The position numbers were made by a program. From a virus (taxonomy: Duplodnaviria > Heunggongvirae > Uroviricota > Caudoviricetes): 64,000 nt of DNA. This document shows positions 30,001 to 36,000 of this stretch, piece after piece (position 1 is the stretch's first letter; every line of letters begins with the position of its first letter). Where the stretch lies: IMG/VR virus record IMGVR_UViG_2718217885_000009. One strand, written 5' to 3'.

Positions 30001-33000
30001 CGCCTCCTGTGGCGTTGAGGGAAACTCCTGCTTCATTTCCTCACGCTGTTCAGTTTCCTTATTGATGTACCACTGCTTCTGTTCATCAGTAAGCGTGATG
30101 TTCATTGCCTTCTCAACCGCAGAAAAATACGTCATTTTTTCCCGTGACAGCTTCAGCCCGCTTTCCGGCACTCTGGCGCTGTATTTAGGATCCTGCCACC
30201 AGGCGTAAAAATGGAATTTATAATCCTGTGCCGTCAGCAATAAGCCTGATGCAGTGATCTCCTGTGCTCGGTTACTCATCTCGTAAAAATCACCACCCAC
30301 GCCTTCAGCAGTGGACTCATCAAAAATAATGCATTCATCAGAGACGGCATTAAGCGTACCGGTTCGCAGTTCTTTCGCCTTAGCCGGATATTTCGCGCAA
30401 ATTTTGCCGTGCTCTGAGATATGCAGGCGCTGCACCGTACCTGAACGGAATGAGGTTGCCACCTGGATACTCGAGCCGTGACCAAACAGGATATAGCCAC
30501 CGCTGGCACCGCTACGACGTTCAACGATGGTGAATGAGGCTCTCAGCCAGTCAGGGAGATGATCAAACGGTACAGCAATTTTTGTGCGGAAAATTTCACT
30601 GGCAGCCTGTTTATCCTGAGCGACGATCCCGCATTTGAGATGCGGAATGAATAATGCCTGGTCGAGAAGATAAATATCAATGGCTGTGGAAAATCCCAGC
30701 TGGCGCGCTTTCAGGATAATATTTTTATTGTGCATGCTCCGGAACAACTGGCGCTGCGCCGGTCGCATTCTGAAGGTGACCAGTTCACCTTTTTCGTTCT
30801 GTATTTTGTAGAGATGATTGAGCCGCCACCAGGGATTGCTCAGTTTAGTCATGATGAACAGACGTTGTTCAGCCTCGGTCATTTCTGACGGCTCATCACA
30901 TCGCGGTTCATTCTTCCGGAATGTCATCCAGTCTCCCCGAATTACTCATTTCATGCAGCGATGACACGATGTCACTGACAGGCGTAACAACGCCCCGACG
31001 CTGGCTGGTCAGAATATCGGTTTCCGCTCTGAGTTTATCTCTGGCGGCGTTGATTCTTTCCCGGTCAGCACGAAGTTTTGGTGCTGTCTCAGCCAGGACG
31101 TCCAGCGTCAGCAATGAGCGTTCAATTGACTCGATACGGGCAATATTCCGGTCAAGGGCCTGTTCAGCTTTGAGTATTTTGTCGTAAAGAGCAACGCGGG
31201 TTTCCACGTCAGTTGCCTCTTCCAGGTCGGCGAACATCCCTTTAAGTGCCTTAGTTACTGAAAGTGCGCGGGCCCGGGTGAACACCAGTTCATCGAACAG
31301 CACCATGTCGGACGCATCATCCATGAGGTTATCTGCCTCAAGATACTTCGCATATCCACGGTGTCTTACGGCGTGGGTGTTTCGCTGAGAAAAAGCGTTT
31401 GAAGGTGGTAAAAGTCGGGAACCACGAATCCGTTTCGTTTCTGCCGAATTTGCGCAGTTTTTTTCAGAGTTTTTTGCGCATTTTTCATCGCCGGAACCCG
31501 CGTCATTGCAGGGTTCTTCATCTGAGATGTCATGATCGATTTCATGATCGGTTTTATGATCAATTTCATGATCGATTTTGCCCATTTTTATACGGGTTCT
31601 GGCGGTGTTGTAATTAATCTTTTTCTTCCGGCACCAGTCCAGTAATGTTATTCCCGTTTCGGCATGTTCGCGTCGGAATGCCTGCTCCAGCTTTTTCCAG
31701 TCCAGCTTTGCCATGTCACTTTCTGACGTCCTGTGTTAAAAACTGATGCATAATGACCGCTGTGATTTTTCAGATTTCACACAGCAGCACCATATTTGAT
31801 CGATATTTGCACAATGCGGTTGTTTTATCCGGTTTCTTCCACCACCGCACCGGACAGGCGGCTTCGCGGGAAATCGCTCCCATCTCGTGAAAAATGAGAA
31901 AACCCGGTGTGCATCGTTTTTGATTATCCCCGCACACTCACGCAGATAAGGTGGCTGCAGTCTCTGTTAATGCGGGAATACGGCGACGATACGGCGCATG
32001 GCTATGTCAGGCTGAAATGCCTTTATCAAATCCGGGTAACGCAATCTGCCCCTGCTGCTCCAGCCTGTCCAGCCTTGCCAGCAACTGAGGCTTCTTCACC
32101 CTGCCCCAGCGATTGAGCAAACGACCTGACATACTGGCGACATCTTTCTCTTTCATGTACTCCAGCATTACAGCGTTGCGCTCCGCCTCCAGATTCGCCA
32201 GACCTTGCTGAATAAGCTCAGCCATCCAGTTGAAAGCCTGAATGTACGCTTCCTTAAAGGTCATAGCAGCCTTCCCCGTAAAACCAAATACCAACATCGT
32301 CCAACCGTCTTTTGTCATTCGATATATGGGCTGGGGTTTACCGTTCTGTAACTCATTGTTTTCATAGCAAAGCGCAAAATTGCGCTCTGCAAATTCTTTT
32401 GAGCATTGTTGAACAACGGCTCTTGTTTTCCGCAATACATCTTTGTGTTCTTTGCCAAATGCTACGGCAACCTTTCGGGTATCCGTCACCGGCTCGTTGC
32501 CTGTCACAAAAACAAGATCTCGAAAATCGATGCCGTTAACGATAGTTGGATAATTCATCAGTGCACACCTTTTAGTGATGAACCTTGTCACACAGGATTC
32601 CGGCCCACAGAAAGGCACCGATCACCAAACCGGCATCCTCAAGGGTCATCCTGAAAGGTTCTGTGTTCATAAGTCGCGCGTGTGAAGCGCGTTTACTGCG
32701 GACATAAAAAAGCCCCGTATCGCGAGGCTCATTAAATTGACTTTGTGATTTGCAAAAAAATTATTTCAGGCATTGCGTCCTGATGTATTCCTGCAGGTAG
32801 TTAACCTGCGCAGTTATCTTGTCGATTCCACTTCTGAGACGGTAATAATTGAGTTCAGCATCTGCTGTAAGTCCTGGGCTTTCTCCATCGCCCATGCTGC
32901 TGGCTCCGGTCGTTGACTTTGCACAGGTGGCGGCGACTTGCAGGCGCTTACGCCCAGCAGAAACATCAGCACGGAGACTTTCGATAGTCGCATTAGCATC

Positions 33001-36000
33001 AGCAAGCTCCTTTGTGTATCTGGCGTCAAGTTCTGCTACATCACGTTGCCGCTTCTGCATATCTGCGATGATGGATGTGGCTTTATCGCGCTGCTCTTTG
33101 TAAGCGATGGCGTTATCACGGTAATGATTCAGCCCCAGACTAAGCGCACCACAGACCACCAGCAGAATAACGGTAAACGCGGAAAGCATTCGGTTTATGC
33201 TCACCCCACCAGCCCTGCCGAAGTCAACGCCATCCAGTTTATGGAAAGAAAAAGAACAACCAGCATTAGTGAAAATGAAATACCGACGATTACACAAAGG
33301 CCCTTCGCCAGCGTTATGAGTTTATCCGATATCATTAGCCACCACTCCATCAATCCGCCTTTGTTATTTTCCCTTTGCCTGTATCAGCCAGGACAAAATC
33401 AATCAGCAGATTCGCTTCGTTTATCAATGTGCGGATTTTTGATACATGCGCGGCTTTAACCTGTTTCCACTCATTCAGCCCGGTAGCAAACACACTGGCA
33501 ATGTTTTTATCCCGTTTCATGTCAGCGCAGGCCTGATTGAGTTCTTCCATCACACTCATTCGACGGGGATTAACGACACCCCCCTTCGTCCAGTATTCAT
33601 AGAGAACATCGTCGCACTCTTCCTGATACTGGATTACCTTGTCGCGGATTTCGGGTTTTACTTTGTTGGGATTGATGGTTTGTAACCAGCCTGCAAGTTT
33701 TCGAAGTGGCAGGGACACCATATTGCGTCGTTTCCCATCCTCAGCAACCATAACGATTTCCGTTATAGTTGACGCAAAACGCTGTCTTAACTTAGCCAAC
33801 TGTGATTGCCAGGCCAGCCCCATCCCCGCAACGACAGGTTTCATGGGAACGTATGGCTCACCGTTATGGTTAACCACATAAAGAGAATCGCCGTGAAACG
33901 GCACGGTCATCATATTCATCGGTTATTTCCTTTTAGTGATGAACCCTGCGCACAGGAATAACCAGCCCAAAGAGGGTTAACCAGACCACTGCCGGTTATC
34001 CACCAGGGCTCATCCTGAAAGGTTCTTTGGTTTATTTACGCTTGTGCGAAGCGCAGAAATGACAAAGACACCATTACGGTGCCTCAGCGTGAAACAATCT
34101 TCCTGACTTTATTCACTTGCATTTTGCCAGTTCGCAGGATTTCGTGTTATCCGTCCGCGTGAGCAAACGTCATTTTTCAGCAAAATATTCTGCTACCTGT
34201 CGATACCCCAGCATGCCAGCGCACTCTCCTGGTCGCGACGGGATACCTGACCGTAGCAATTATTTGAGCGGATACGGCAGTCTCTGCCACCGTCCTTAAT
34301 CCACCAGCGAATCGCTTCACACGCTCCCCTGCGATCGCCTGCATTAATTCGTTTATAAAACGTCGACGGGAAACACTTACCGGGGCCAATGTTGTAAGGA
34401 CAGAATGACGCGATCCCCGCTTTCTGAGGTTCGGTCAGTGGCACTCTGATGTTTTTCGCCACCCATGCCAGCGCCTTATCACGTTCAATGGCGTTAACCT
34501 GGTCGCATTTTTCCTTCGACAACTTCATGCCGGGGACGACAAGCTTACCATCCACCTGGGTGGCACCACGGCAGATGGTCCAGATACCCACACCATCACG
34601 GTATGCCGTGGTGTGGTTGCCTTCCTTTTCATCCAGAAACTGGTCGAGGATTTCAGGCGCAGAAGCACCTGCGGCAATCAGCGCCAGAACGGCAGCCGAT
34701 AAACCATAGCGGAGTTTCCTGCTCATCAGCTTACTCTCCCCGTGCCGCCTTACGCCTGTCCTCTCTGATTTTGAAATACAGGTTCGTCAGGTACGTCAGC
34801 AGACCAAACAGCAGACTCCCCAGCACGCCTATTGCCGCCCACTGAGACGGGGAAACCCTGTCCAGCAACTGCAGGAACCAGTAGCCCGTTCCCACCGCTG
34901 ACGTGGTGTATGACACACCTGTTGTGATTTTTTCCATCTGGTTCATACCCCGCCTCCCGCAATCCGGAAGCTCACAACAATAAAAAAGACCACCGGCACA
35001 CACCGATGGTCCCTGACGCATGCTTACATCATCATGTCGCTGTCCGGTGTGGGGTCACCGCTATCTGAAGCACTCCCCTCACCCGCGATGCCTTCCGGCT
35101 CCGGAGCTGCCGGTGCGCCCAGCAGTTCATCCAGAATGGCATCCACTTCTGCATCAAGACGCGCTTCCAGGTTATGGCGAAGTTTCTGTTTCAGTGCGCT
35201 CCGGACTTCTTCAGAGCGCAGGACTTCCTTCACTGCTTCAGCAGTGACCAGGGATGTAATTTCTGACATGGGATTTTCTCGTCGAAAGATGTGATTAAGA
35301 AAGTTGCCGCTAAATGAGCGGCTCTTCGGGTTTGCTTCCGGCTGACTGACTGGCGCTGATTTTCTCAGCGGCCCTTTTGTCAATCTGTCTGCGCCAGAAG
35401 TCACGCATGGCCCTGTACCCACCCGAAAGGAGATACAGCACACAGACCACCGTACAGAAGTACAGCATTAACTGGTTCAGAAATGTCATAATTTCTTACC
35501 GTTATGGTTGACTAAGTAAACAGTTTTCATTTAAAAATGCCGATGACGAAAGTGGTAGTATCTTTCCTTGATTCTCCATGAATCTCACACCGCCAGAGGT
35601 CTCAGGCAACTGGCGGCTTTTTTTATCATGCCGCGGCATCCGCGTTGTTCACTTCCACCGCAATGCTGTCAATCAGCACCGGGTAAGTCGCATTCCTGGT
35701 AATGTCTGTCACATGCAGTTTATCCGCCGCAAATGCACTGACCGGTGACTGCGTCAGCGTGAACGGTGTGCCATCCTGACCATCAATAACCGGCGTCACC
35801 TGAAGGCTGTTATTCCCGGCAAAGCGGAAAGCCAGCATATGCCATTCGTTATCAAATGCGCCAAAGGTTCCCAGTTTCAGGTTGTTTGTCGCTACTTTCG
35901 CATTGTGGTACATCACATTCAGGTCTTTTGCATCTGTCTGGATGTAGAACGCTGCCAGCAGGTTATTCCCCCCGTCTCCGGTCAGGGCAACGCCCTGTGG

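Follow-up and report, generated by a model that had tools for sequence, protein, structure and literature searches.

A widespread family of leader RNAs predicted to pair the Shine-Dalgarno sequence of accessory genes in phages of Enterobacterales

Introduction

In phage lambda, no gene lies between R and Rz (PMC4426718). The sequence analysed here, a 64,000-nt stretch of the Caudoviricetes record IMGVR_UViG_2718217885_000009 in IMG/VR (hereafter the window), belongs to a Stx2a phage of the O104:H4 type, and its interval 31900-34800 is 100% identical to P13374 and phiON-2011, Stx2a phages of the 2011 O104:H4 outbreak lineage. An antirepressor-like (ant-like) gene lies between the endolysin gene R and the spanin gene Rz of this phage, a Rha-family gene follows Rz, and each is preceded by a homologous segment, here called leader copy A (upstream of the ant-like gene) and leader copy B (upstream of rha). 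The locus raises the question of what these leaders are and what they may do for the genes behind them. An initial annotation had tied them to antirepressor genes and to cross-talk among prophages, an interpretation which is partly supported by our analysis, but is too narrow. The leader is a member of a widespread RNA family that is not private to ant genes, and we favour, with a probability of about one half, the reading that it may act as a cis-acting translational gate, perhaps with two states, in a portable terminator-leader-gene cassette of the late operon.

Two homologous leaders in the lysis cassette

The alignment of leaders A and B has a mean column identity of 71%, and two boxes are identical in both, the 16-nt box 1 GAACCTTTCAGGATGA (34010-34025 in copy A, 32646-32661 in copy B) and the 17-nt box 2 GGTTCATCACTAAAAGG (33929-33945 and 32568-32584, respectively). 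Chance matches at three or fewer mismatches amount to 0.57 per window for box 1 and 0.15 for box 2, and no further good copy of either box occurs elsewhere in the window. A covariance model run unfiltered over the whole window finds exactly these two copies (Table 1). The upstream homology noticed in the initial annotation is thus confirmed. The homologous part covers about 130 nt and ends at the Shine-Dalgarno (SD) sequence; it is a little shorter than the extents given there (33935-34080 and 32565-32720) and displaced relative to them.

Box 1 (CCUUUCAGGAUGA) is near-complementary to box 2 (UCAUCACUAAAAGG), which contains the SD. In the minimum free energy (MFE) folds, box 1 pairs with box 2 in a long stem (-43.1 kcal/mol and z = -3.8 for copy A; z = -1.4 for copy B). 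A consensus scan places a small GC hairpin and a terminator-like hairpin upstream of each leader.

A widespread family absent from Rfam

More than 400 instances of the leader were found in phages and prophages of Enterobacterales, including P22, VT2-Sakai, and Klebsiella phages. BLAST searches against phage records returned several subtypes from Stx phages, P22-like Salmonella phages, and Klebsiella phages: in VT2-Sakai the leader lies between R and ant, in Salmonella phage MG40 after Rz/Rz1 and before a KilA gene, and in Klebsiella phage 1 LV-2017 it immediately follows Q and a terminator, and the gene behind it encodes a 141-aa TerB-like protein. Pattern scans of viral and genome collections yielded 213 unique modules and, after removal of chance matches, 12 genera (Escherichia, Salmonella, Klebsiella, Raoultella, Pantoea, Erwinia, Xenorhabdus, Providencia, Edwardsiella, Arsenophonus, Rosenbergiella, and Entomohabitans). 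Most homologues were retrieved with patterns containing the boxes; one pattern matched the Klebsiella subtype only, and the pattern used on the genome collection was loose, with about 100 of its 120 loci being chance matches that were filtered out by pairing energy. Searching the retrieved loci with a hidden Markov model (HMM) brought in 29 more, divergent copies without exact boxes. At least one copy is present in 878 of 5,426 complete E. coli genomes, at a median of three places per genome and a maximum of ten, and no RefSeq feature lies beneath the E. coli matches listed. Roughly one in six of these genomes therefore carries the element, which is also found in much-studied phages (P22, the Shiga-toxin phages of Sakai and O104:H4, and Klebsiella prophages). 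The element is not bound to ant genes: in many phages it stands before very different ones, TerB-like and HNH genes among them.

In Rfam 15, nothing matches the leader on its sense strand at the gathering threshold or at E-values up to 1-10; the only match, asX2, reaches 27 bits against a gathering score of 70 and lies on the opposite strand, over the terminator. The families C4 (RF01695), sRNA-Xcc1 (RF02221), and isrK (RF01394) give no match in 31700-35100 even at E-values up to 10, and the C4-clan and isrK models give none to the leaders of loci L001-L003.

Two copies occur in 17 of the 24 loci examined, as in the window. The two are of different subtypes and lie within a few kb (L136, L207, L172, L250, L389, L004/L016, L183, L137, L401, L461, and others), and some cassettes adjoin tail genes instead of the lysis cassette. 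One 700-bp contig labelled Kocuria sabuli (L158) carries a leader of the Klebsiella phage type and the start of a TerB-like gene, with a core identical to one in IMG/VR contigs, which probably reflects contamination of an actinobacterial assembly.

Structure and covariation of the leader

Read from 5' to 3', the element comprises an intrinsic terminator, the hairpin P0, a linker, the long stem P1 with conserved bulges, the short helix P2, the hairpin P3, the 3' strands, and the SD. The conserved box CCUUUCAGG makes up the 5' strand of P1, and the SD lies in the 3' strand of this stem. Two more segment pairs cross this arrangement. Segment a, the loop of P0, pairs with a', which lies directly 5' of the P1 3' strand (UCACAC/GUGUGA, UCUCAC/GUGAGA, UCGCAC/GUGCGA, CGCUC/GAGCG, CGCCC/GGGCG, UGCCC/GGGCA, and CGCACA/UGUGCG were seen), and segment b, the part of the linker abutting P1, pairs with b' in the inner domain (CACAGA/UCUGUG, CAAAGA/UCUUUG, CUCAGA/UCUGAG, CCAAGA/UCUUGG, and CAGAGAG/CUCUCUG). 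Both a' and b' are internal to the leader, and neither contains the SD, whose partner is box 1. The pairs a-a' and b-b' change together between subtypes, and copies A and B differ in both a and b.

Covariation supports the predicted helices P0, P1, P2, and P3 as well as the crossing pairings a-a' and b-b'. In an anchor-based alignment of 46 non-redundant modules, with pairs counted for the full structure including the crossing helices, pairing is seen in 94.4% of cells, compared with 77.0 ± 0.5% in shuffles (a level reached by none of 500), and the covariation score is 0.394 compared with 0.103. When the 3' partners are slid by 1-3 columns, pairing falls to 29-44%. The variable columns of a-a' hold GC 32, AU 8, and UA 6 in one case and AU 31, UA 9, and CG 6 in the other, with no unpaired combination, those of b-b' hold AU 29, UA 9, and CG 8 and CG 27, AU 18, and GC 1, and nine pairs of P1 change on both sides. 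P1a and P1b are invariant in this set because they were part of the retrieval patterns. The divergent copies, found without the search boxes, keep all elements and add six b/b' pairs (including CGAGAG/CUCUCG, CACCGA/UCGGUG, and CGAUA/UAUCG) and one a/a' pair; in them, AG/CU of P1b is replaced by GG/CC, and the SD helix appears as CCUG/CAGG, ACCUGC/GUAGGU, or CCUU-A/U-AGG. A model-made alignment including these copies, itself fitted to P1, has P1 paired at 96.6%, with 13 of 17 pairs changing on both sides. In plain MAFFT alignments, a' and P0 of different subtypes are out of register, and the covariance model R1 therefore carries P1 only. The SD is paired with box 1 in the full-length MFE fold of 45 of 47 representatives, and in every case inspected the start codon lies 8-11 nt past the box.

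G-U pairs are frequent, A-C pairs rare, which places the constraint on RNA in the mRNA sense, not on DNA. This bears on the possibility that the segments reflect nothing more than shared ancestry or a recombination "linker" between mosaic modules, giving a functionless RNA. The cassettes are indeed mobile and mosaic, and the same leader type stands before different genes and at different sites of the late operon. However, compensatory changes in six helices across 12 genera would be inexplicable by drift without structural selection, and together with the restriction of G-U pairs to the mRNA sense they make such a linker very improbable.

Three other candidate features of the leader were considered. 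A leader peptide was rejected because the reading frame is not conserved: a 25-codon open reading frame (ORF) runs into the SD in copy B, and a stop follows after 5 codons in copy A and in the Klebsiella type. Box 1, with CAGGAUGA, resembles the SELEX motif of CsrA-type GGA sites; the Klebsiella subtype has CAGGGGUGA, and the motif is therefore not a defining feature. No match to the integration host factor (IHF) consensus was seen by eye in the leader.

Terminator, promoter, and cargo of the cassette

Of 242 unique contexts, 198 have a terminator-like hairpin with a T-run at most 75 nt upstream of where the model begins, compared with 82 of 2,000 random windows. Its stem mostly ends 5-21 nt before P0, and several of the contexts scored as terminator-less, including copy-A-like ones, have imperfect terminators. 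A scan of the minus strand at 31700-35500 detected no sigma-70-like promoter, and a promoter of the cassette's own between terminator and P0 was rejected, the scan being negative and hexamers picked by eye not being conserved between subtypes. As the terminator stands upstream and no promoter was found, expression of the cassette should depend on the late operon and not be autonomous in the lysogen. Lambdoid morons, as reportedly set out by Juhala et al. in 2000, are promoter-gene-terminator insertions. They resemble the leader cassette in being extra genes between conserved late genes, present or absent among relatives, but the order of the cassette is reversed, with the terminator upstream and no promoter found.

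The genes behind the leader form 24 clusters, and they include TerB-like (141 aa), P22_AR_N, KilA-N with or without P63C, Rha with or without ORF11CD3 or ANT, ANT, AntA, Bro-N, HNH_3 with or without AP2, and T5orf172/MUG113 proteins, a GT2-like protein, and a few unknowns; counts per class are biased by the search patterns. Most of this cargo, not all of it, belongs to the shuffled antirepressor/Bro/KilA DNA-binding class or to homing-endonuclease-like genes; its coherence is limited to antirepressor-class and mobile DNA-binding genes, to which TerB and GT2-like proteins are added.

The P22 leader and the small RNA P22F

Model R1, built without P22, matches P22 at 39506-39636 (52.9 bits, E = 6e-10), after gene 15/Rz1 and a terminator and before rha. 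The P22 copy is of a divergent subtype, with CCCUUUGGAAUGGG instead of CCUUUCAGGAUGA. The start annotated for ORF201/rha in P22 (NC_002371), GTG 39575 (ORF 39575-40180), falls inside the leader, an annotation which can now be corrected: with the SD GAAGG and ATG 39644, P22 Rha is about 23 residues shorter and has the usual length of its homologues. The same ATG 39644 site is taken as the rha start in a report of June 2026 describing ten small RNAs of P22, among them P22F, an 89-nt RNA of unknown function which partially overlaps ORF201, has its 3' end 6 nt from the rha start, accumulates in infected cells, was validated by RT-PCR, and was also found in outer-membrane vesicles; homologues, a structure, or a link to the SD are not given there (PMC13397905). 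By sequence, P22F is P22 39550-39638, the 3' two-thirds of the P22 leader. It therefore comes from the same type of locus, between Rz/Rz1 and rha, but its 5' end lies inside the P1 5' strand, so it is without P0, b, and the anti-SD box of the full leader. A literature search of incomplete coverage found no other description of the leader, and the box sequence was not found in paper texts. We conclude that the leader is a widespread structured cis-element absent from Rfam, one member of which has just been reported as P22F.

The accumulation and vesicle export of P22F invite the explanation that the leader is the precursor of a stable trans-acting small RNA of the P1 c4 or Gifsy-1 IsrK type, with a/b or a'/b' as specificity loops. 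Two covarying pairs of short complementary segments mark out c4, a system reportedly described by Citron and Schuster in 1990, and the frequency of two-copy loci, together with the many phages that carry copies with different a/b, as the window does, would suit pairing with matching segments of other transcripts or of other copies. Nevertheless, the element always ends at an SD and a start codon, the SD pairing is conserved, both partners of each pair always lie within the same stretch of about 130 nt, the two copies of one genome may share a/a' (L136), and the C4-clan models give no match, so we regard a trans-acting role as quite unlikely. The c4 RNA of P1/P7 with icd-ant (Rfam C4) does resemble the leader in being a structured RNA ahead of an antirepressor-type gene, in having two pairs of short complementary segments that vary in step among relatives, and in its outcome, control of ant translation, which is likewise proposed for the leader. 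It differs in sequence and structure, and in being processed and acting in trans on the immI ribosome site, whereas the leader holds both partners itself, has its SD paired by a third element (box 1), and lies in a late operon behind a terminator.

A putative translational gate: one fold or two

On the reading we favour, that of a cis-acting gate, each copy would be the regulatory part of a portable cassette inside the phage late operon. Leader and gene would be transcribed only by Q-modified, terminator-resistant RNA polymerase, late in lytic growth, because no promoter was detected and an intrinsic terminator lies directly upstream. P1, a structure supported by covariation and thermodynamics, would pair the SD with the conserved box and thereby turn translation initiation off. 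The segments a' and b' are synthesised before the P1 3' strand, so that on the nascent RNA a-a' and b-b' may hold the anti-SD strand off and leave the ribosome site briefly open, after which the RNA would settle into the stabler closed P1 form. The outcome would be a small, transcription-coupled dose of the antirepressor-class or other cargo from a very abundant late mRNA. Whether the leader is a switch or a lock, it would keep cargo output low and tied to late transcription. A narrower formulation, of a portable RNA switch with two exclusive conserved folds, the cargo of which is translated only on nascent Q-antiterminated transcripts or upon a signal, is advanced tentatively.

The two-state gate is favoured because, in short variants of the leader, b-b' and a-a' could hardly coexist with the rod formed by P1 and P2. 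The pairs a-a' and b-b' are nested with each other and cross P0, P1, and P2. The helix a-a' is able to stack on P1 and, with P0, to give an H-type pseudoknot of the classical kind, but b-b' is more difficult to accommodate. Segment b abuts the base of the P1/P2 stack of about 20 bp, to the far end of which b' is tethered. In the mini variants of about 105 nt (L009, L034, L063, L064, L074, L099, and L110), there is no P3, and b' is found in the apical loop of the very rod that has b next to its base, which leaves little room for b-b' beside a full P1. From this steric reasoning, which is not a computed result, we think that full P1 and b-b' are alternatives, and the mini variants are the best material for deciding on their exclusion. 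When the RNA is cut just past a', 15 of 47 representatives, copy A among them, have b-b' in the MFE fold. The thermodynamics are compatible with, but do not prove, an early nascent-chain fold that yields later to P1.

Several points weigh against this reading, and its two-state part is the least secure step. The P1 fold is favoured over the nested a-a'/b-b' fold by 12.5 kcal/mol on average, with P0 uncounted, and the share of shortened RNAs with b-b' in the MFE fold is low. Neither the b-b' nor the a-a' strands overlap P1 directly, so a sharply bent, compact double pseudoknot with all helices coexisting is possible. P0 and P3 were placed by a best-hairpin search, and their counts are thus fitted. 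The SD helix is nearly invariant (CG 33 and UG 4; UA 36), and its support comes mainly from thermodynamics and a few divergent copies, because the SD is constrained and the patterns contained the boxes. P22F stops about 5 nt short of the start codon, which a decay intermediate would explain as well as a processed stable RNA would. Finally, we infer the control of translation from structure alone.

If all six helices coexist in such a closed double pseudoknot, the leader might instead be a sensor, a riboswitch or a protein-binding operator, which a small molecule, a protein of phage or host, or an RNase opens or cuts. Precedents for opening and cutting are Com on the Mu mom mRNA and RNase III in the lambda N leader. 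The fold, with its two long-range covarying pairings, is far more elaborate than SD occlusion requires, unpaired nucleotides are strongly conserved (UCU..GGGC.G, and C and A bulges in P1), the geometry would allow a-a' to stack on P1d and P0 as in an H-type pseudoknot, and P22F begins within the P1 5' strand, as it would after cleavage. The leader also shares with translational riboswitches a covarying multi-helix fold and an SD-occluding platform. Nevertheless, no ligand or protein is indicated, the cargo genes are without a common metabolic theme, the riboswitch and protein-binding families of Rfam give no match, and the mini variants would, by geometric reasoning, need a bend of about 180 degrees for coexistence. 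Overall, a sensor seems unlikely.

Compared with known systems, the presumed gate is best filed as an SD-sequestering leader RNA with an unusual conserved pair of crossing helices and a terminator-first layout. SD-sequestering leaders with kinetic or factor-dependent opening are known from the MS2 maturation gene, hok mRNA, Mu mom/Com, T4 e, and I-TevI. In these, as proposed for the leader, the ribosome site lies in a long-range stem and expression is confined to transcripts that are nascent, specially initiated, or activated, and the T4 cases involve selfish genes of the HNH/GIY type, which are also found among the leader cargo. Their sequences and folds are unrelated, however, and they have neither the P0/a-a'/b-b' architecture nor an upstream terminator.

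The leader offers a handle on the dosing of accessory genes of late operons (ant, rha, and kilA), and on both the accumulation of P22F before rha and the restraint of rha expression. Rha was defined through toxicity in IHF mutants, and rha of P22 and phi80 is harmful in IHF-defective hosts, a harm which the gate, if real, might explain. Should the two-fold model be true, the element would be a compact, portable translational timer and a clean covariation case for two exclusive structures, and the order terminator, RNA gate, and gene would be a general, unrecognised route of gene carriage and dosing in lambdoid and P22-like phages.

Antirepressor-type genes and other features of the window

Both late genes are already annotated in RefSeq, as "anti-repressor Ant" and "Rha-like transcriptional regulator" in P13374 (window position = 63223 - phage coordinate), and the gene part of the initial annotation is correct. 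Pfam assigns P22_AR_N to the gene between R and Rz (155.8 bits; gathering cutoff 30.7) and Phage_pRha to the gene after Rz (91.7 bits; cutoff 29.9). The ant-like gene starts with an ATG 9 nt past ..AAAAGG. Both proteins may bind and inactivate repressors, as indicated by their family names only. Downstream of rha, the terminase genes also lie on the minus strand.

Table 1. Coordinates of the leaders, their elements, and the genes of the window discussed in the text
Feature	Position	Strand	Evidence	Remarks
S holin	34731-34946	-	Pfam	
R endolysin (Phage_lysozyme)	34193-34726	-	Pfam	Upstream neighbour of cassette A
Terminator-like hairpin A	34065-34085	-	Consensus scan	GAGGCACCGTAATGGTGTCTT, then TGTCATTTCT; follows R closely; about 11 nt upstream of copy A P0
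Leader copy A	33925-34056	-	125-bit model match, MFE fold, family alignment	Upstream of ant-like gene
Copy A, P0	34053-34039	-		Loop a CGCAC(A) 34048-34043
Copy A, b and b'	34030-34024; 33973-33967	-		CCAAAGA; UCUUUGG
Copy A, P1	34022-34004; 33948-33929	-		5' strand with anti-SD box; 3' strand
Copy A, P2	34001-33999; 33957-33955	-		Paired with each other
Copy A, P3	33998-33978	-		
Copy A, a'	33954-33949	-		(U)GUGCG
Copy A, SD	33933-33928	-		AAAGGA
Ant-like gene, 189 aa	33350-33919	-	Pfam P22_AR_N, E 5.9e-46	Weak C-terminal ORF11CD3 match
Rz spanin (Phage_lysis)	32761-33189	-	Pfam	Between both cassettes; Rz1 embedded at 32814-33029 (RefSeq coordinates mapped)
Intrinsic terminator-like hairpin B	32710-32730	-	Consensus scan	GAGCCTCGCGATACGGGGCTT, then TTTTATGT; follows Rz/Rz1; about 18 nt upstream of copy B P0
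Leader copy B	32564-32692	-	121.6-bit model match, MFE fold, family covariation	Upstream of rha
Copy B, P0	32691-32675	-		Loop a UCACAC 32685-32680
Copy B, b and b'	32665-32659; 32612-32606	-		CACAGAA; UUCUGUG
Copy B, P1	32658-32640; 32587-32568	-		5' strand with anti-SD box; 3' strand
Copy B, P2	32638-32635; 32598-32595	-		Paired with each other
Copy B, P3	32634-32617	-		
Copy B, a'	32593-32588	-		GUGUGA
Copy B, SD	32572-32568	-		AAAGG
Rha-family gene, 183 aa	32007-32558	-	Pfam Phage_pRha 4.6e-26	ORF11CD3 6.9e-24
Rha+Ash gene	49238-50023	+	Pfam	Adjoining isrK + C4 at 49134-49321
ORF6N gene	50279-50953	+	Pfam	sRNA-Xcc1 at 50157-50240
AntA gene	58548-58862	+	Pfam	sRNA-Xcc1 at 58447-58536
AntA gene	58950-59741	+	Pfam	sRNA-Xcc1 at 58986-59071

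By Pfam, the prophage has six antirepressor-type ORFs, two late and four early, and RefSeq names five in P13374, which bears out the count of at least five made at first. The four early genes are without the leader, since the covariance model finds only the two copies in the window; isrK and C4-clan elements on the plus strand (isrK with C4, and three of sRNA-Xcc1) lie instead upstream of or at the 5' ends of the early ORFs. Every antirepressor-type gene of the window thus stands behind a structured RNA, of two unrelated kinds, C4-clan early and leader late. No complementarity between the C4 loop of the window and the leader was seen by eye.

The initial annotation related this gene number to cross-talk with resident lambdoid prophages. 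Six antirepressor-type ORFs in one prophage would fit such a role, and the late gene d_ant of Phi24B, the equivalent of the ant-like gene, has been proposed to counteract CI and to be the target of a 20-nt RNA, 24B_1 (PMC4426718). The 24B_1 site lies in the coding region of d_ant, not in the leader. On the other hand, the late cassettes of other phages also hold genes that are not of the antirepressor type, and late, Q-dependent expression would come after the lysis-lysogeny decision of the phage's own cell, so cross-talk is an improbable explanation of the number of these genes.

Pfam gives no match to a 48-aa ORF at 50122-50268 (+), named "antB2 anti-repressor" in RefSeq for P13374, most of which lies under an sRNA-Xcc1 match; here an RNA element has probably been annotated as a protein. 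Similarly, the long GTG-started ORF at 58950 begins upstream of its sRNA-Xcc1 match, and its AntA domain starts only at residue 75.

Between the ant-like gene and Rz, a strongly hydrophobic 50-aa ORF at 33201-33353 (-) shares an ATGA with the end of the ant-like gene and lies ahead of Rz; it corresponds to the hypothetical ORF53 of P13374 and is unannotated in VT2-Sakai. In the moron site 3' of pR', placed on the phage map between stx2B and the gene for a 645-aa SASA esterase, AsxR (37715-37767, +) and STnc100 (37769-37974, -) form a convergent pair, which is the known anti-sRNA arrangement reportedly described by Tree et al. in 2014.

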